Below, in pieces: positions 7,144-59,306 of a stretch of DNA of 64,000 nucleotides (positions are counted from its first letter, which is position 1; each line of letters begins with the position of its first letter). The notes beneath the pieces are model-generated. The model saw only the letters and a program-made list of their open reading frames with translations. It had not been told where the DNA came from and ran no database searches. A program made the translations under genes and the position numbers. This stretch comes from Minisyncoccia bacterium (GTDB taxonomy: Bacteria; Patescibacteriota; Minisyncoccia; SW-4-49-11): positions 28,494 to 92,493 of the forward strand of contig JBIKVS010000004.1 in NCBI GenBank assembly GCA_044356725.1. Reading direction: 5' to 3'.

Positions 7144-8277
7144 ATGGACAAAATAGAAAAGATTTTTACAGAAGCTATGGCTCTTGGAGATATTAAGGTA
7201 AATGGAGATAGAGTTTGGGACTTTCAGGTTAAAAATCCAGCTATTTGGCAAAGAATGCTGAAAGATGGTTCAATGGGTGTCGGTGAGGGGTATGTAGAAG
7301 GTTGGTGGGATGTAGAGGCTTTGGATGAATTCTTATTTAGAATAAGAAAATATAAAGTTTTGGATGCTTTATCTGATGTTTTTGGGGGTTCTTGGCAAAA
7401 TCGACTATATGTTTTACAAAGTAAGGTTTTGAATTTACAAGATAAAGAAAAAAGTAAGAGAGTAGCTAAAGAGCATTATGATATAGGGAATGATTTGTAT
7501 ACTAGAATGCTTGATCCTTATATGCAATATACCTGTGCTTATTGGAAAAATGCTGATAATTTAAATCAAGCTCAAGAGAATAAATTAGATTTGATTTGCC
7601 GTAAATTAAAGTTAGAAAAAGGAATGAGAGTACTAGACATTGGTTGTGGTTGGGGCGGTTTATTGAAGTTTGCTTCAGAGAGATATGGTGTTATTGGAGT
7701 TGGGATTACTATTTCACAAGAGCAACAAAAATTAGCTCAAGATACTGTTAAGGAGCTTCCAATAGAAATTGTTTTAGCTGATTATAGAGAATATTCATCA
7801 GAGCCTTTTGATAGGGTGGTTTCAGTTGGGATGTTAGAGCATGTAGGGTATAAAAATTATAAAGAGTATATGGAGGCTGTGAATAAGAATCTAAAAGATG
7901 ATGGTTTAGCTCTTTTACATACTATTGGAGATAGTGTTTCTACTACCACTACTGAACCTTGGATAGACAAATATATATTCCCAGGAGGTCAAATACCATC
8001 TTTGCAACAATTATCTAAATCTTGGGAAAGCATATTAACTATACAAGATTTGCATAATATTGGACCAGATTATGACCTTACTCTGATGGCTTGGTATGAG
8101 AATTTCACACAATCTTGGCCAGAGTTAAAAGATAAATACGGAGAAGAGTTTTATAGACTATGGGAATATTATCTTTTGAGTTGCGCTGGTAGTTTTAGGT
8201 CTGGATATCTACAGTTGTGGCAAATGGTATTCACTAAGCAATATAATCGACTAGAAAGATACGAAGCTGAGAGATAG
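7144..8277 (+). CDS. cfa: Cyclopropane-fatty-acyl-phospholipid synthase.
   Basis: SAM-dependent methyltransferase motif VLDIGCGWGGLLKFASERYG, plus YTCAYW and VGMLEHVGYKNYKEY; length about 377 aa. Confidence 0.85.
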   Translation: MDKIEKIFTEAMALGDIKVNGDRVWDFQVKNPAIWQRMLKDGSMGVGEGYVEGWWDVEALDEFLFRIRKYKVLDALSDVFGGSWQNRLYVLQSKVLNLQDKEKSKRVAKEHYDIGNDLYTRMLDPYMQYTCAYWKNADNLNQAQENKLDLICRKLKLEKGMRVLDIGCGWGGLLKFASERYGVIGVGITISQEQQKLAQDTVKELPIEIVLADYREYSSEPFDRVVSVGMLEHVGYKNYKEYMEAVNKNLKDDGLALLHTIGDSVSTTTTEPWIDKYIFPGGQIPSLQQLSKSWESILTIQDLHNIGPDYDLTLMAWYENFTQSWPELKDKYGEEFYRLWEYYLLSCAGSFRSGYLQLWQMVFTKQYNRLERYEAER

Positions 8278-8304: not shown

Positions 8305-8333
8305 TTGTCAAAATTCTAAAAATAAGATATAAT
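8305..8333 (+). promoter_or_regulatory. Sigma70-like promoter upstream of tRNA-Leu(TAA).
   Basis: TTGTCA, a 17-bp spacer, then TATAAT, ending 13 bp before the tRNA 5' end. Confidence 0.45.
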
Positions 8334-8346
8334 GATTTCACTATCA

Positions 8347-8431
8347 GCTAGGGTGGCGGAATGGTAGACGCAACGGACTTAAAATCCGTCGGTGATTAAA
8401 CACTGTGAGGGTTCAAGTCCCTCTCCTAGTA
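8347..8431 (+). tRNA. tRNA-Leu (anticodon TAA), class II with a long variable arm; CCA not encoded.
   Basis: Hand-folded: acceptor gctaggg/tcctagt (two G-U pairs), D-arm gcg-gaatggtaga-cgc, anticodon stem acgga/tccgt with loop cTTAAaa, long variable arm, T-arm gaggg-ttcaagt-ccctc, discriminator A. Confidence 0.8.
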
Positions 8432-8579
8432 CAAATTATAGAAACAAAAAAGCAATAGTCAGTTTTGACTATTGCTCAGGACTTGAAGGTCGGAGCGATG
8501 TGTGAGTTTGTGCGAAGCACAAGGCGAACACCGCGAGACGGGGTCGCGAGAATTTTCCGTCAGGAAAATTACTTGTGAC

Positions 8580-8602
8580 CAAGTCCCTCTCCTAGTACAA
8601 AT
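8580..8602 (+). repeat. 23-nt direct repeat of the tRNA-Leu(TAA) 3' end (caagtccctctcctagtacaaat), about 150 bp downstream of the tRNA; att-like.
   Basis: Exact duplicate of 8414-8436. The intervening 8437-8579 contains two perfect hairpins (gcaatagtc-agtttt-gactattgc and aattttcc-gtca-ggaaaatt) and a GC-rich segment. Confidence 0.85.
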
Positions 8603-8610
8603 AGAGAAGC

Positions 8611-8635
8611 AGTCCGTTTGGACTGTTTTTTAATT
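8611..8635 (+). terminator. Rho-independent terminator following the second copy of the tRNA 3' end.
   Basis: 'gcagtccgtttggactg' followed by 'tttttt'. Confidence 0.6.
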
Positions 8636-8639
8636 CCCC

Positions 8640-8966
8640 TCTTGAAGGGTGTCCCAAAGGGGCGGGGTGGATGGATTTATAAAACACAGGTGACATAAGG
8701 TCGCCCCTACGGGATGAGTGTAAAGCAAATGTCATTGCCTGCTTTAGGCAGAGATGTCTCCATTGAGCGACCGAAAATACTGTCCTCCCTTGGGGGAGGT
8801 GTCACGAAGTGACGGAGGAGGACAAAAAGCTCAAGTTTCAAAATACTTCCACCCCGTCCAGCGAAGCTGTCCACCCCCTCAATTTATCTCCATCCCTACG
8901 GGAGGTAAACCCGTAGGCAGAGAGGGGAATTTAAGGCAACTGAAAGATCGTTCTCTCCTAGTATAT
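8640..8966. repeat. Block of mosaic GC-rich intergenic repeat modules; these hairpin-forming modules are shared with at least eight other intergenic sites in the window.
   Basis: Contains modules that recur elsewhere in the window: 'aggtcgcccctacg' (family A); 'ctgtcctcccttgggggaggtgtcacgaagtgacggaggaggaca' (family C, compare 29519 and 32158); 'ccaccccgtc…gaggggaatttaa' (compare 4095-4165); and 'tctctcctagtata' (a tRNA-3'-end-like fragment). Confidence 0.7.
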
Positions 8967-8976
8967 CTTTAAAATA

Positions 8977-9066
8977 TAGACAAAAGTTTCAAAATATGGT
9001 ATGTTTCTGATTGTACGGACTCTAGAGCAATTTAGAGTCAAATTTTCTCTACCCTGAGGAGGGGTT
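8977..9066 (+). promoter_or_regulatory. Cassette promoter and 5' leader, copy 1: TAGACA, 17-bp spacer, TATGTT, then a ~55-nt leader with a conserved hairpin and a GAGGAGG ribosome-binding site.
   Basis: About 90% identical to 9657-9747. A related core (TAGACAAAAGT…AAATATG.TAT.GT) appears at 15642. Confidence 0.55.
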
Positions 9067-9516
9067 ATGTCTAACTCTCAATCGGATATAGATCCATTTG
9101 AAGAAGCACAATTTTTCATTCCCAACTCATCATACTTTAGTAGATTGTATTGTTTGGATTATATACTTACAAAACTTGATAGGGAACATAGAAGAATGGC
9201 TTTAAATATTTCTGATGACTCTAAACTTGCATTTGAAGGTGCTAATATACAACCTCCTGAGTATATTTATATTAAATTCATTGAAGAGTGGGAGTTAAGT
9301 GATAGTGATGTCCTGCACTTTGATTATCAGAGAAGAGGAGGAATTATCCCCAAATGGGGTCCTGGTGAAAAGTCGAAAGAATCACTTTTGCACATTGGGG
9401 CAATTATAAGGTTAAATCTTTTATATCAAATTAGAATGATAGGGCCAATAGATCCTAGCCCAAATGACTGTGAGTGGAGAAGAGTAGGAAAGATTGAAGT
9501 GGTAAAGCAAAGTTAA
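9067..9516 (+). CDS. Hypothetical protein, cassette ORF 1 (149 aa); no family recognised.
   Basis: ORF with a strong ribosome-binding site (gaggagg, 5 nt, ATG), enclosed by the shared promoter/leader and the shared terminator. Confidence 0.55.
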   Translation: MSNSQSDIDPFEEAQFFIPNSSYFSRLYCLDYILTKLDREHRRMALNISDDSKLAFEGANIQPPEYIYIKFIEEWELSDSDVLHFDYQRRGGIIPKWGPGEKSKESLLHIGAIIRLNLLYQIRMIGPIDPSPNDCEWRRVGKIEVVKQS

Positions 9517-9531
9517 TAAGTGTTTTCATTT

Positions 9532-9557
9532 CCCCCGCGTGCGATGCGGGGGTTTTT
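9532..9557 (+). terminator. Cassette terminator, copy 1 (cccccgcgtgcgatgcggggg + TTTTT).
   Basis: Perfect 9-bp GC stem with a T-run. It is identical to the element at 10122-10147, including the downstream 'attttcgactatttat'. Confidence 0.8.
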
Positions 9558-9656
9558 ATTTTCGACTATTTATTCACTCTCTCCACCACTTCCTAAACTT
9601 AAAGTATAGGAGGAACTTAAAGCCCTACGACAAGAATAGATTATCTCTTCGCAATA

Positions 9657-9747
9657 TTGACAAAAGTTTCAAAATATGATATGTTTCTGTTTGTCCAGGC
9701 TCTAAAGTAATTTAGAGTCAAATTTTCTCTACCCTGAGGAGGGTTTT
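9657..9747 (+). promoter_or_regulatory. Cassette promoter and 5' leader, copy 2 (TTGACA, 17-bp spacer, TATGTT, conserved leader, GAGGAGG ribosome-binding site).
   Basis: Near-identical to 8977-9066. Confidence 0.55.
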
Positions 9748-10110
9748 ATGTTGAATGTTCATTCGGCTGCATCAGCTGCAGAATTTTTTGTAGTAGATAG
9801 AATAACTGGGAAAGCTAGAATATATGACTTATCTTGTAAAGAGACTAAGGAAACAAGAATATTTTGGCTTCAAACTAGTCCTCTGAAAACAGAGTATATA
9901 GTTCTATTTTGCGATGTAACTTTAGACAATGGCAGAACAATTTCAGGTGGTGGTGAAATATCTATTATAAAAGAAGAGTTTGATAAACTCGAAATTAATG
10001 ATAATGTAGAAATAGGATTTGAGATACGTCAGAATTTCGGAGAACCTAGGAAATTATACCCACTTACATTAAAGTTTATAGATAGAGAAGGAGCTCTCGA
10101 TCTTTCTTGA
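9748..10110 (+). CDS. Hypothetical protein, cassette ORF 2 (120 aa); unrelated in sequence to ORF 1.
   Basis: Same arrangement as cassette 1 (promoter-leader, ORF, terminator), but with a different ORF. Confidence 0.55.
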   Translation: MLNVHSAASAAEFFVVDRITGKARIYDLSCKETKETRIFWLQTSPLKTEYIVLFCDVTLDNGRTISGGGEISIIKEEFDKLEINDNVEIGFEIRQNFGEPRKLYPLTLKFIDREGALDLS

Positions 10111-10121
10111 TTACCCCCCCC

Positions 10122-10147
10122 CCCCCGCGTGCGATGCGGGGGTTTTT
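10122..10147 (+). terminator. Cassette terminator, copy 2.
   Basis: Same hairpin and T-run as 9532-9557, preceded by a C-homopolymer. Confidence 0.8.
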
Positions 10148-10212
10148 ATTTTCGACTATTTATCTATAATTTGGTATAATAAATATACTTCAAATTAAGA
10201 AAATATACTGTT

Positions 10213-12768
10213 ATGCCCTCGCCGATGATGACTCAGTTTTATGAAATCAAAAAATCTTATCCGAATGATATTTTGTTTTTCCGCCTTGGGGACTTTTATG
10301 AAATGTTTGCAGAGGATGCGAAGTTAGCAGCTCCAATACTGGATTTAGTGCTAACAGCAAGAAAGAATACAGTAGATGGTAGTATTCCAATGTGTGGGGT
10401 ACCTTATCATTCATCTACTCAATATATTCAAAAACTAATCAAAGCTGGACATTCCGTAGCTTTATGCGAACAACAAGGATCAGCTCAAGATACTAAAGGT
10501 TTAGTCACTAGAAAGGTGGTAAAAGTCATTACTCCGGGGACAGCCTTATTTGAGACTGAGACAAGTGAATCAAGATATATAGCTAGTATTTATAAACAGA
10601 AAGATATTATATATATCGCTTTTGCTGACTTAGGGACTGGAATTTTTGAAGTGGGGGAATTTAGTTCTCAAGAATTAAAAGATATTTTAAGTTCAAGACA
10701 AGTCAAAGAAATTATATTGCCACAAAATAGTGATTTGAGTGAAGAATTAAAAGATTTGGGTATAAAATTAAGTATAGAGTCAAAGTGGAACTTTCAATTA
10801 GAGCGGTCTATTGAGACTTTGACTAAACATTTTGGAGTTACTAGTATGTCCGGATTCGGTTTTGAAATTGATGATTTACGGTTAGCCCCAGCAGGAGCTT
10901 TACTTAATTATCTTATTTATACTCAACAAGAGGATTTGAAGCATATTACAAAATTGCAAAGCATGAAGTTATCTCGATATATGCGATTAGATGCCCAAAC
11001 CATTCAAAATTTAGAGTTGTTTTATCTATCAAGAGCTAGTCAAAAGGGAAAAAGTTTTTATCAAGCTATTAATTATACTAGAAATCCTCTGGGATCTAGA
11101 ATGTTGAAAAACTGGATATTAGCTCCATTATTAGATATTAAGTCAATTCAAACTCGTCAGAATCATATACAAAATTATATTCAAAACCCTAGTAAAATTG
11201 ACCAAATTAGAGATTTATTAGCTCAAATTGCTGATATTGAGAGACTATTAGCTAGACTTTCTAGTAATGTCGGCGGACCTAGAGATATGTTATTATTATC
11301 CAAAAGTTTTGAATATATTATTAAAGTTTTAGAGATTGATAATGAGGATTATATAAAGTCTGCTATAAAGGCTTTGAGTCAATTAAACCCTCTACAACAA
11401 GAATTGCAAAAAGCTCTACAAGAAAATGTTCCAATATTAGCTCGGGATGGTGGATTCGTGGCCAAAGGTTATAGAGCAGAAATTGATGAGTTACTAGATT
11501 TAAGTCAAGGAGGTAAGGAGTGGCTACTAGAATTACAAACCAAAGAACAAGCGAGAACCGGGATTAATTCTCTTAAAGTTAAGTATAATAAGGTCTTTGG
11601 ATATTATATAGAAATTAGCAATGCTCATAAGAATCAGGTTTTACCAGACAATTATATCAAAAAGCAAACTTTAGCTAATGCAGAGCGATATATTACTCCT
11701 GAATTAAAAGAATTTGAGGAAAAGATATTAAGTTCAGAGTCTCAACTATTAAATTTAGAACAAATAGTTTTTGAAGAATTAAGACAAGCTATTATAGCCG
11801 AGGCGGAACAAATTTATACTATTGCTGAGACTTTAGCCTATATTGATTGTATACAAGCTGGGGCCAAATTAGCCCTAGATTGGAATTATATAAAGCCTAT
11901 AATTACTAAAAAATCTAAATTATATATAGAGGCCGGCCGACATCCAGTTTTGGAGCAGTTAATTACAGATTATATACCTAATAATTGTAAACTCACCGAA
12001 CCAAATCACTCTCTAATGTTAATTACAGGTCCTAATATGGGAGGTAAATCTACTTATATTAGGCAAGTAGCTTTGATTGTGCTTCTAGCTCAAATTGGAT
12101 ACTATGTCCCAGCTATTGAGGCTGAGATTGGAATAGTGGATAGAATTTTTACTCGAGTAGGAGCTTCGGATAATATGAGTGAGGGACAAAGTACTTTTAT
12201 GGTGGAAATGCTTGAAGTTGCAAATATTTTGCATAATGCTACCAAATCTAGTTTGGTTATTTTAGATGAAGTCGGTAGAGGCACTTCTACTTATGATGGG
12301 ATGAGTATAGCCAAGGCTTTGATTGAATATATTCATAATACAATTGGAGCTAGAACTCTATTTGCGACTCATTATCACGAATTATTAAATTTGGAAGCAG
12401 AATTAGAGGGAGTGGTGAATTATCAGGTTTTAATTCAAGACTCTGAGGATGATATTATTTTCCTACATCGTATTGAACAAGGTGGAGCTGATAAAAGCTA
12501 TGGAATTGCCATTGCTAAATTAGCAGGATTTCCAATAGATGTGCTAGAATTAGCTAAAGGAGCACTTATTCAATATGAACAAAAAAAGTCTCAATTATCT
12601 TTTTTACCAACAAATAATCTAAAATCGCCTCAAGATCCAGCAATAAACCCAAAAATTGAGAAATACAATAATTTATTACAAAATCTGCACTCTTATAATT
12701 TGAATAATTTAACTCCGATGCAGGCATTATCTATATTAGATGACTTACAAAAGAATAATCCACTATGA
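10213..12768 (+). CDS. mutS: DNA mismatch repair protein MutS.
   Basis: N-terminal mismatch-binding region MTQFYEIKKSYPNDILFFRLGDFYEMF, Walker A GPNMGGKST, and ATPase region STFMVEMLE…DEVGRGTSTYDG; 851 aa. Confidence 0.95.
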   Translation: MPSPMMTQFYEIKKSYPNDILFFRLGDFYEMFAEDAKLAAPILDLVLTARKNTVDGSIPMCGVPYHSSTQYIQKLIKAGHSVALCEQQGSAQDTKGLVTRKVVKVITPGTALFETETSESRYIASIYKQKDIIYIAFADLGTGIFEVGEFSSQELKDILSSRQVKEIILPQNSDLSEELKDLGIKLSIESKWNFQLERSIETLTKHFGVTSMSGFGFEIDDLRLAPAGALLNYLIYTQQEDLKHITKLQSMKLSRYMRLDAQTIQNLELFYLSRASQKGKSFYQAINYTRNPLGSRMLKNWILAPLLDIKSIQTRQNHIQNYIQNPSKIDQIRDLLAQIADIERLLARLSSNVGGPRDMLLLSKSFEYIIKVLEIDNEDYIKSAIKALSQLNPLQQELQKALQENVPILARDGGFVAKGYRAEIDELLDLSQGGKEWLLELQTKEQARTGINSLKVKYNKVFGYYIEISNAHKNQVLPDNYIKKQTLANAERYITPELKEFEEKILSSESQLLNLEQIVFEELRQAIIAEAEQIYTIAETLAYIDCIQAGAKLALDWNYIKPIITKKSKLYIEAGRHPVLEQLITDYIPNNCKLTEPNHSLMLITGPNMGGKSTYIRQVALIVLLAQIGYYVPAIEAEIGIVDRIFTRVGASDNMSEGQSTFMVEMLEVANILHNATKSSLVILDEVGRGTSTYDGMSIAKALIEYIHNTIGARTLFATHYHELLNLEAELEGVVNYQVLIQDSEDDIIFLHRIEQGGADKSYGIAIAKLAGFPIDVLELAKGALIQYEQKKSQLSFLPTNNLKSPQDPAINPKIEKYNNLLQNLHSYNLNNLTPMQALSILDDLQKNNPL

Positions 12769-15486: not shown

Positions 15487-15641
15487 TTAGTGAATTGAAT
15501 TAAAATTCCCCTCTCTTCCTACGGTTTACCTACCGCAGGCAGGGAGATAAATTGAGGGGTGCCCATAGGGCAAGGTGGAAAAACCAGGCGACTGAAAGGT
15601 CGCCCCTACGAGAACTATGAACTAAAATGAGGAATATATTA

Positions 15642-15697
15642 TAGACAAAAGTGGGGAAATATGCTATTGTCTAGGAGTTCCCTCAAACCATCAGGCT
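15642..15697 (+). promoter_or_regulatory. Third copy of the cassette-type promoter core (TAGACA, 17-bp spacer, TATTGT), driving a GC-rich small ORF.
   Basis: 'atagacaaaagtggggaaatatgctattgt' parallels 'atagacaaaagtttcaaaatatggtatgtt' at 8975. Confidence 0.4.
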
Positions 15698-15988
15698 ATG
15701 ACCATGTCACAAACTGATAAAGATAGAGCTTTGCAAGAGGCAAGAGGTGCCTACCAGGATTCTGACGGAGCTCTCGTGGCTCTTGCTGCTGCTGCCAAAG
15801 AGTATCAGGACATTTTTGCCCTTACCAGGCACCCCAACTTTAAGGATAGTGTCATGACAGGAGAGGTTTTCGCTGATCTGACCCAGGCTAGGCGAAAAAT
15901 GAAGGAGGCTTTTGATGAAGTCTCTCGCACAGAAACAGCTCTTTTTAAGCAAGTTGCTAGTCTTCTTGCACCGGCATCGGGTGATTGA
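15698..15988 (+). CDS. Hypothetical 96-aa Ala/Glu-rich protein; its GC-rich composition looks foreign to this genome.
   Basis: ORF with visibly higher GC than its surroundings, so antisense ORFs also stay open across it. It is followed by a C-rich hairpin plus T8 terminator at 16005-16048. Confidence 0.4.
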   Translation: MTMSQTDKDRALQEARGAYQDSDGALVALAAAAKEYQDIFALTRHPNFKDSVMTGEVFADLTQARRKMKEAFDEVSRTETALFKQVASLLAPASGD

Positions 15989-16004
15989 ATCAATCTTCAC
16001 CTCC

Positions 16005-16048
16005 ACGCCCTCCCCCCCGACCGTTTCGCGGCTCGGGTTTTTTTTACA
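16005..16048 (+). terminator. Rho-independent terminator (GC hairpin plus T8) after the GC-rich small ORF.
   Basis: 'cccgaccgtttcgcggctcggg' followed by 'tttttttt'. Confidence 0.55.
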
Positions 16049-16054
16049 TCAAAA

Positions 16055-32157: not shown

Positions 32158-32205
32158 TGTCCTCCTTTGGAGGAGGTGGCACGAAGTGCCGGTGGTGGAT
32201 TGAGT
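32158..32205. repeat. Family C repeat module. Family D ('gggtactccctccaaagggagaca', 32385-32404) follows in the same intergenic region.
   Basis: Matches 29519-29585 (C) and 57075-57116 / 59156-59197 (D). Confidence 0.8.
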
Positions 32206-32451
32206 TTAATATTATTATAAACAAGTGTTTATTTTAGTATTCCAAAGTATATCCACTCTCCCCCGTCGCAAATGGCATTTGCTCCTGGGAAACCTCACAG
32301 GTTTGACCAACCTTCCTCCACGGGAAAACTACCGTTTTCCCGACCCCTTTCCCAAAGGCCAAAGCCTTTTTTACGGGTACTCCCTCCAAAGGGAGACACA
32401 ATAAATTTCAACCTTAAAGTAATGTCTGTGATATTTCTCATCTTTTTCATA

Positions 32452-56987: not shown

Positions 56988-57074
56988 AACATATTATAAA
57001 CCTACTATAAATACTAGTATTATAGCACTTTTGGCGGATTTTTGTAGGGGAATAATTGTGGGATATTGCCCTTC

Positions 57075-57116
57075 GTCCACCCTCCCCCTTTGGGGACTCC
57101 CTCCAAAGGGAGACAT
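57075..57116. repeat. Family D repeat module (gtccaccctccccctttggggactccctccaaagggagaca).
   Basis: Matches 59156-59197 and, in part, 32385-32404. Confidence 0.8.
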
Positions 57117-57273
57117 TTTAGGACAATGAATTTTTGTCCCCCTTCGGAGGGGGAAGCCCGCGGGGCGGGGGTGGATAACTTAATAACAAAGGTAGGACAG
57201 AAAACAAGAGTAATAGTAGTAATATTCTCAGTATAAAGAGAAAAGACCAGCCTCAAGGTGAGGCGGTCTGTGG

Positions 57274-58780: not shown

Positions 58781-59155
58781 ACATAACTTTTGTCATAAAT
58801 TAACAAAAGTTAACAAGACTTGACAAAATTATTAAAAAGGTATAGATTAAATTTGCCTCCATTTTTCTGTGGAATGCCTTCAAATCGTCGTCACAAGATT
58901 AATCGCAAGGTCAGAAAAGCAATAACATATTGGGGTCTTAGTCAAAGATCCTGTGAAAATCGTATTTTTCAAAGAGCCAGAAGCTGGCCTCAACCAAGAA
59001 CAGGAAAATTAATTATTGATATGCCTGAGTCCACATAGCTCAATACAACAACTGAATACCCTCCCCTTCCACTCAGCCTCCGACAATCGGAGGCTTTGTA
59101 AATTTTATAGGTATTAATTTTCCCTCTGAGTTGGTGGGAGTGGATAAGAAGTCAT

Positions 59156-59197
59156 GTCCACCCTCCCCCTACGGGTACTCCCTCCGAAGGGAGACAG
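59156..59197. repeat. Family D repeat module (gtccaccctccccctacgggtactccctccgaagggagaca).
   Basis: Paired with 57075-57116. Confidence 0.8.
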
Positions 59198-59306
59198 AAT
59201 ATAAGATCCACCTCCTCCAACTACCTATGGAAGTTAAAAAGGAGGGCGGTTAGGTCAATGATATGTTATAATAAATAAATATATACATATTTAATAATAA
59301 AACTTT

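Follow-up and report, generated by a model that had tools for sequence, protein, structure and literature searches.

Introduction

The T-loop is a standard sublocation for integrases that target tRNA genes, and the integron attC site and the attP(+) hairpin of the CTX phage are folded single-stranded recombination sites. Prophages, genomic islands and streptococcal ICEs and IMEs target the 3′ ends of tRNA or ribosomal-protein genes, the ICEs and IMEs being found at tRNA genes, rpsI, rplL and rpmG (PMC5357655, PMC4701971). A description of the integron attC site is available (PMC5737381), and the bridge RNA of the IS110 family has been reported (PMC11208160).

Herein, a locus of a Parcubacteria (CPR) bacterium is compared with these systems. 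The window, i.e. the whole stretch of DNA that was analysed, comprises 64,000 nt at a GC content of 0.33 and carries typA, cofD, a Wzy-like and a YraN-like gene, cfa, tRNA-Leu(TAA), two small ORFs, mutS and mutL. The 166 non-coding nucleotides at 8437–8602 are, at slightly better than even odds, one copy of a structured insertion module, denoted S. Our main reading, with a probability of about 0.55, is that S is a non-autonomous, structured and site-specific insertion module whose target is set by base pairing.

The repeated tail of tRNA-Leu(TAA)

The features of the locus are compiled in Table 1. As noticed in a preliminary description of the window, the tail of the tRNA recurs downstream of the gene. 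The 23-mer CAAGTCCCTCTCCTAGTACAAAT is present twice without mismatch, and no further copy with up to three mismatches exists in the whole 64 kb (expected number 0, from 100 shuffles). From its start in the T-loop, the repeat extends 4–5 nt beyond the discriminator base, without CCA. Because the gene flank is included and CCA is absent, the template was DNA rather than mature tRNA. The third tail copy of the preliminary description is real as well: CTCTCCTAGTA extends over 11 nt and has three matches in the window against 0.05 expected by chance.

Table 1 Features of the tRNA-Leu(TAA) locus, in window coordinates
Feature	Position	Strand	Remarks
Promoter-like site TTGTCA-17-TATAAT, 5′ of the tRNA	8305..8333	+	11/12 matches
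tRNA-Leu(TAA), intact	8347..8432	+	ARAGORN and Rfam (57.4 bits)
Repeat copy 1, T-loop to 4–5 nt beyond the tRNA end; functional 3′ end	8414..8436	+	
P0 hairpin GCAATAGTCA-GTTT-TGACTATTGC	8452..8475	+	9/10 pairs change on both sides
Module S, three-way junction	8479..8586	+	CM scores 147–188 bits
Target-complementary segment GGACTTGAA, antisense to TTCAAGTCC (tRNA T-loop/stem)	8479..8487	+	
Repeat copy 2, displaced tRNA 3′ end; first 7 nt are the 3′ strand of P1	8580..8602	+	
Intrinsic-terminator-like hairpin CAGTCC-GTTT-GGACTG and T6, 3′ of copy 2	8610..8631	+	hairpin 8610–8625, T6 8626–8631
GC-rich block of nested inverted repeats	8632..8948	+	similar hairpin repeats scattered through the window
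Repeat copy 3, decayed displaced tRNA tail	8953..8963	+	
Two cassettes of promoter, small ORF and terminator	8962..10163	+	ORFs 9067–9516 and 9748–10110

The 143 nt between copies 1 and 2 have a GC content of 0.52–0.53, compared to 0.33 in the window. The two perfect hairpins and the GC richness ascribed to this insert were thereby recovered, the former as the 10-bp hairpin at 8452–8475 and as a perfect 8-bp helix within a longer hairpin at 8542–8580. The stretch folds much better than its shuffles (z = −7.1). Copy 2 is followed by the terminator that had been described, and the same terminator hairpin lies directly 3′ of the tRNA in several other loci, including L002 and L085. On the + strand, no promoter-like site was detected between 8334 and 8976, and the sole one upstream of S is that of the tRNA itself.

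The whole region from 8437 to 10170 had been proposed to be the remnant of one or more integration events. This was not upheld, as the repeats bracket 143 nt of non-coding DNA only and the cassettes lie outside all three tRNA-tail copies. Since the repeats bracket so little DNA, and since a 101-nt core of it recurs in at least six other loci (see below), the insert is probably not the remnant of a larger integrase-borne island. In agreement with the preliminary description, no integrase was found in the window, neither among the translations of all ORFs of at least 90 aa nor by Pfam on 19, a survey short of an exhaustive profile scan.

Copies behind tRNA genes in relatives

A search with cfa retrieved two close relatives, L001 (88% identity) and L002 (83%), both of which are Parcubacteria/Minisyncoccia MAGs. 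L001 presents an empty site, in which tRNA-Leu and mutS are separated by a spacer of 117 nt with a terminator; the corresponding distance in the window is 1780 nt. In L002, the tRNA is followed by a terminator hairpin of the copy-2 type, the first ~34 nt of the window insert, a GC-rich block, one cassette and mutS. The layouts of L001 and L002 identify the spacer between tRNA-Leu and mutS as a variable region. The preliminary description took the attL/attR signature as an insertion footprint at the 3′ end of the tRNA. This part is retained, and the empty site agrees with it; an integrase or cargo between the repeats is missing.

A 20-mer from the insert was searched across metagenome contigs, which gave eight real loci and two chance matches in coding sequence. 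At all eight real loci the motif is found just 3′ of a tRNA gene, or the contig begins there. Three host tRNAs of S can be distinguished, namely tRNA-Leu(TAA), tRNA-Leu(CAA) (L086) and tRNA-Val(TAC) (L090). L086 and L089 share one contig of 89 kb, where the L089 copy follows tRNA-Leu(TAA) territory upstream of mutS, and L090 belongs to a distant Patescibacteria lineage as judged from the neighbouring CofE protein. In every tRNA context, the 3′ copy after S matches the 3′ end of the local tRNA. At least six other loci, behind three tRNAs and sometimes in tandem, carry the same 101-nt core unchanged or almost unchanged. This core is identical across genomes whose cfa differs by 12–17% and whose tRNA-Leu differs at two positions; the core of S is more conserved than the tRNA itself.

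The copies differ in completeness and number. Only the first ~40 nt of S are found in L002, in L082 and in the distal unit of L085, the latter locus carrying one full and one truncated unit. L089 holds at least two tandem units, and tandem units with 53-nt repeats are seen in L085, L088 and L089. L088, the closest relative of the window, shows compensatory changes in one of the hairpins. S is preceded by a terminator-like hairpin with a T-run in many of the tRNA-Leu(TAA) loci, and in loci of the L085 type it is placed between two such hairpins with T-runs. The copy-2 variants of L084 and L086 contain a C to T change, by which pairing with GGACTTG is kept as a G·U pair.

Fold of the module

In S, the stem P1 is formed by 8479–8484 and 8581–8586 and carries two arms. 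One arm consists of P2 (8489–91 with 8537–39), a GGA/GA internal loop, P3 and a variable P4; the other is P5 (8542–8580), in which two G·U pairs are invariant in the 6-sequence set. P0, located 5′ of the junction, is homologous to the terminator hairpin 3′ of copy 2, with compensatory changes and without a T-run. A full unit thus reads P0, GGACTTGAAGGTCGGAGCGATG, the variable hairpin, ACCGYGAGACGGGG, the long hairpin ending in CTTGTGAC, and ~20 nt of local tRNA tail.

The window fold was imposed on five tRNA-linked copies, which gave the covariance model R1; the model was rebuilt twice (R2, R3). R1 scored 69 bits for L090 and retrieved a copy on a Kaiserbacteria contig that is not beside a tRNA (L038, 32.7 bits). 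R2 and R3 added further copies (L038, with three in 21 kb, L110–112, L117, L119 and L120–122), and no match at E ≤ 1 was obtained when the S models were run on 1.37 Mb of other loci. In an alignment of eight sequences, which like the other covariation alignments was fitted to the model and draws on few independent lineages (~10 contexts from a handful of lineages), 93.9% of the cells are paired as compared to 37–48% with slid partners, 37 of the 51 base pairs changed on both sides, and none of 500 shuffles reached any of the measures. Copy 2 is therefore part of a conserved structured element. The preliminary description had named a structured RNA unrelated to integration as a finding that would speak against it, and the element seen here is instead tied to insertion.

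Searches of Rfam 15 at gathering thresholds and at E ≤ 10 with the window region, L110, L038, L090 and L101 returned only tRNA and weak, terminator-driven matches (L110). Module S as a structured element class absent from Rfam is well supported. Several other identities were considered and dismissed. A tRNA-like, tmRNA-like or split-tRNA identity is at odds with the lack of a 5′ acceptor strand, of an ARAGORN call and of CCA, and with the inclusion of the gene flank. The end of a group II (class C) intron, ribozymes, a retron and a DGR spacer were discarded for want of an Rfam match and of a reverse transcriptase nearby; moreover, the differences between the repeats are not adenine-specific.

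Copies behind protein genes

The copies that were added by the models lie behind rplB (L038, L110, L117, L119), rplE (L038, L120–122) and fusA (L038), in genomes of Kaiserbacteria-like type. In all contexts S is in sense orientation with respect to the upstream gene. After each S, the 3′ end of that gene recurs as a displaced copy, and several of these copies encode an in-frame alternative C-terminus with a stop codon. For L5 of L038, the working end LPLQKPTE-stop is accompanied by the displaced, in-frame end LPLQKEEEVK-stop, and in L121 the respective ends are LPLQKRESETE-stop and LPLQKLES-stop. EF-G of L038 ends in KDIEVEE-stop, the displaced version being KDINFKEE-stop plus the start of a terminator. 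At rplB of L110, GAAAACGATAAAACAAAAA spans the stop codon, and the same 19 nt are repeated exactly downstream. Among 120 homologues of L5, tails of both kinds are found as natural C-termini. The layout is common to tRNA and protein genes, with a working 3′ end, S and a displaced second copy, the last of which is presumably the older one.

In close relatives (P0121–P0240 set, 120 homologues), the part of L5 that follows GLPLQK is hypervariable in both length and sequence; repeated replacement of the gene 3′ end might be one contributor to this variability. In Parcubacteria ribosomal operons, the rplB–rpsS and rplE–rpsN junctions hold 0.3–3.7 kb of variable genes (L107, L109, L110, L114–L121), including DUF2103, ClpP, Sua5/YciO, HATPase_c/DUF4325 and unassigned ones, and S sits at the same junctions. 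Possible direct repeats of the rplB end that flank the larger cargo of L107 were set aside; they are short, lie partly in coding sequence and are chance-like.

The target-complementary segment

Between P0 and the junction lies the segment antisense to the target gene. In the window, its 9 nt are Watson–Crick complementary to the upstream tRNA, and the first 7 of these also form P1 with the start of copy 2. The pairing of GGACTTGAA with TTCAAGTCC is that of the tRNA-linked modules. Analogous pairings are found behind the protein genes. In L038, TGAAGTGG pairs with CCACTTCA of rplE, and a 16-nt run pairs with CATAAAAGATATTGAG of fusA. At rplB, TATCGTTTT pairs with AAAACGATA in L110, CTACTAGCCG with CGGCTAGTAG in L117 and CCTT(T)ATCCG with CGGATAAGG in L119. 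When each segment was compared with each locus, Watson–Crick runs of 6–16 nt were obtained for the own gene as opposed to mostly 3–6 nt for the other loci, and shuffled segments gave runs of at least 9 nt in 0.3% of cases. The own-gene run of L121 is 6 nt, or 11 bp with one wobble by reading of the alignment. Between two rplE modules, one differing position compensates a synonymous CTT/CTG codon change in the target. Thus, the antisense segment co-varies with its target.

Pairing with the upstream functional copy is equal to or better than that with the displaced copy, the latter often differing by a wobble-preserving transition (L084, L086, and copies B and C of L038). In five of eight cases, by reading of the alignments, pairing reaches 2–5 nt to the left of the repeat boundary and therefore spans the junction in the intact target. 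The segment could also be a by-product of the insertion chemistry and not a guide.

Signs of repeated insertion

The DNA between S and the exact repeat of L110 contains two older RKR-stop tails, together with 20 nt from the end of an older P5. L117 and L119 encode the same L5 protein and differ in the rplB stop-codon region, the terminator, P0 and the antisense segment. Each of the two antisense segments fits its own rplB end, and P5 and the displaced tail are common to both, a pattern expected of chimeras that form by recombination between tandem modules. In the window, copy 3 is found behind the GC-rich block, and an L088-like P0 is combined with an L085-like terminator. Taken together, the tandem and decayed copies and the strain-level chimeras point to recurrent insertion.

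Other duplications were observed at related loci. In L101 (246–453), the last 18 nt of tRNA-Leu(CAG) are repeated exactly 106 nt downstream with a GC-rich insert in between, and an ORF of 98 aa begins 4 nt after the tRNA-tail copy. The S models did not match this insert, which may represent a second such family. In L086 (12620–12700), tRNA-Leu(CAA) is followed by a terminator in the form of a 27-bp palindrome. The left arm of the palindrome takes in the final 9 nt of the tRNA, so that an inverted copy of the tRNA end is located just 5′ of S. On the reverse strand of L088 (oriented, ~12060–12560), a 5′ fragment of mutS is duplicated and followed by an opposite-strand ORF of 122 aa before the real mutS start, i.e. 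another insertion with target duplication, at the mutS end of the spacer.

Neighbouring repeats and cassettes

The GC-rich block downstream of the terminator is probably an older, unrelated insertion. It was examined as a second S and rejected, as the models match its leading hairpin only (22.9 bits). GC-rich (~50%) nested hairpin repeats also occur at 1222–1265, 15500–15610, 32159–32400, 57060–57180 and 59060–59240. They share GTCCTCCTTTGGAGGAGG, GGTGGAT and CCCCTACG, are intergenic and occur in both orientations, and look like a dispersed REP/MITE-like family.

The two cassettes (8962–9573 and 9642–10163) have related units at 340–980 and 15640–16050. Each is composed of a promoter-like TAGACA/TTGACA-17-TATGTT, a 5′ UTR hairpin, GAGGAGG, a small ORF and the terminator CCCCCGCGTGCGATGCGGGGG. 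Their ORFs gave no Pfam or PHROG family. Because the cassettes recur in the window without S, they are treated as separate from it. ORF 408–926, which has a cassette-type promoter and an internal tandem repeat of ~240 nt, reaches a GC content of 0.72 over 120 nt and looks foreign to the genome. On the other side of the tRNA, cfa (7144–8277) is accessory: in L085 (5864–6352) and L088 the YraN-like gene is directly followed by tRNA-Leu. The cfa relatives next in rank share only ~55% identity and stem from unrelated phyla.

Comparison with known systems

Module S resembles the integrative elements of tRNA and ribosomal-protein gene 3′ ends in its target class, in the restoration of the gene by an element-borne copy and in the flanking direct repeats, as well as in the start of the repeat in the T-loop and in the order of insertions, the newest being apparently nearest to the gene and decayed ones farther away. 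It differs in that the insert is ~150–250 nt in size and non-coding, with no integrase near. Moreover, S has a covarying three-way junction and a target-tracking antisense segment, the latter of which is not needed by protein-determined att sites. Measured against attL/attR sites of tyrosine integrases, S shows the tail repeat from the T-loop and the empty site of L001, whereas an integrase or its remnant and cargo between the repeats are absent.

With attC and CTX attP(+), S has in common that the structure is kept while the sequence varies, and that inverted segments ~100 nt apart recreate a target-like duplex. The flank junction at the base of the stem, the size (~60–150 nt) and the tolerance of a branched distal structure are alike as well. 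In contrast, S is devoid of R″/R′ boxes (RYYYAAC/GTTRRRY), its arms being GGACTTG/CAAGTCC here and different for each target, and of dif-like arms; no association with IntI or Xer was found. The repeats of S (12–50 nt) restore a gene, and its targets are gene ends instead of attI or dif. Fold and covariation are shown for S, and its invariant G·U pairs favour the + strand. The neighbouring cassettes differ from those of an integron in having promoter-like sites of their own and in not being bracketed by S, and no integrase was found.

The IS110 bridge RNA is likewise a structured non-coding part with short target-complementary segments, in which specificity follows the sequence of the fold, and the pairing of S spans the insertion point in the intact target (5/8 cases). 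On the other hand, S has neither a DEDD recombinase gene nor a recognisable two-loop target/donor architecture, and IS110 insertions do not duplicate 12–50 nt of target. The IS200/IS605 derivatives, namely PATEs and the ωRNA of TnpB, are comparable as short, non-autonomous, hairpin-rich elements of strict orientation, with a scaffold followed by the target at the 3′ end; here the differences are the unrelated hairpins P0 and P5, the target duplication of 12–53 nt and the absence of TnpA/TnpB nearby. MITEs, Correia elements and REP/REPIN sequences are, like S (three copies in 21 kb of L038), small, non-coding, multi-copy, located behind genes and likely co-transcribed. S lacks the fixed short target-site duplication of MITEs, its duplications being 12 to ~50 nt in length. 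Since the target itself forms one arm of P1, the terminal inverted repeat of S changes from one target context to the next. As each of the compared families has defining features that are not found in S, it is filed under target-restoring site-specific insertion.

The gene tables of related loci list no recombinase, transposase or reverse transcriptase beside any of the ~12 copies of S, nor an ORF of a DEDD/RuvC-like recombinase, and tnpA or tnpB were not seen near S. Searches for S patterns, exact and gapped, in viral contigs gave no match, as did blastn of S against phage and plasmid collections, and no free or excised form of S was seen.

Proposed mechanism and alternative explanations

Presence or absence among relatives, the duplication, the conserved fold with its compensatory changes, the co-variation of the antisense segment with the target and the tandem or decayed copies are observed directly. 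We infer the direction of events, the movement of S by site-specific recombination and the choice of its target by base pairing. According to the proposed mechanism, S would land in gene 3′ ends, those of tRNA genes or of highly expressed protein genes, the target being chosen by pairing, or by sequence identity, of the antisense segment with the 3′ region of the gene. The conserved junction may act as the platform for a recombinase acting in trans. To the left of S, this would leave the working gene 3′ end and a hairpin, and to the right the displaced second 3′ end. Sense orientation and invariant G·U pairs are features pointing to RNA or the + strand. Conversely, strong expression as RNA is disfavoured because terminator-like hairpins with a T-run precede many copies of S. 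More speculatively, S could be the part by which a hitherto undescribed, base-pairing-guided integration system of CPR bacteria recognises its targets. In that case the three-way junction, either as RNA or as folded single-stranded DNA, would present a reprogrammable segment of 7–16 nt that picks an essential and highly expressed gene and lands at its 3′ end; an enzyme acting in trans would carry out the chemistry, and the element would provide a replacement gene end. We regard this extension as doubtful though worth stating.

The repeat from the T-loop to just past the gene, the empty site in L001 and the precedent of integrative elements that target and restore the 3′ ends of tRNA and ribosomal-protein genes (PMC5357655, PMC4701971) would all agree with a tyrosine-integrase element that inserted at the T-loop and lost its interior and integrase, leaving attL, attR and a 143-nt arm. 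A random deletion remnant, however, would not show full identity across 101 nt in six or more loci whose cfa is 12–17% apart. Nor would one expect the same fold behind three tRNAs and three protein genes, compensatory changes or a complementary segment that tracks the target, and no integrase is near any of the ~12 copies. This origin is accordingly quite improbable. An origin of the repeat in slippage or unequal crossing-over at the tRNA end, as a local duplication around ordinary spacer, is contradicted by the data and can practically be dismissed. Tandem 53-nt repeats as in L085, L088 and L089 can expand or contract by homologous recombination, but such events cannot make a conserved 101-nt core or put it behind unrelated genes elsewhere.

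S may also be thought of as a resident functional RNA derived from the tRNA or operon transcript, e.g. an element of 3′-end processing, of stability or a decoy, in which the antisense segment pairs with the upstream 3′ end or the downstream copy and the need for the fold keeps the duplication. The sense orientation everywhere and the two invariant G·U pairs, which work on the + strand only, are in line with this, as are the lack of a + strand promoter-like site between the tRNA promoter and S, the terminator 3′ of S, the wobble-preserving C to T change in copy 2 of L084 and L086 and the better conservation of the S core relative to the tRNA. A resident RNA leaves unexplained the empty site, the tandem and truncated units and decayed tails, as well as the in-frame displaced C-termini with stop codons, and in loci of the L085 type it would have to be made between two terminator-like hairpins with T-runs. 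We consider it a serious rival, which fits the sense orientation, the G·U pairs and the wobble-preserving changes no less well than insertion does, though unlikely as the sole function of S; it is compatible with mobility, and one fold may serve both.

Conclusions

If the insertion module reading is true, small-genome CPR bacteria would harbour an active family of non-coding mini-elements by which the 3′ ends of genes for tRNAs, ribosomal proteins and elongation factors are rewritten time and again. These elements would occupy the tRNA-Leu–mutS, rplB–rpsS and rplE–rpsN junctions, where the gene content of relatives differs. Guide-RNA systems, bridge RNAs among them, were recognised by just this kind of signature, a fold segment that co-varies with its target. 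Together with a partner enzyme, S would then constitute a compact module for programmable landing sites, which would be of relevance to mobile-element biology and genome engineering.
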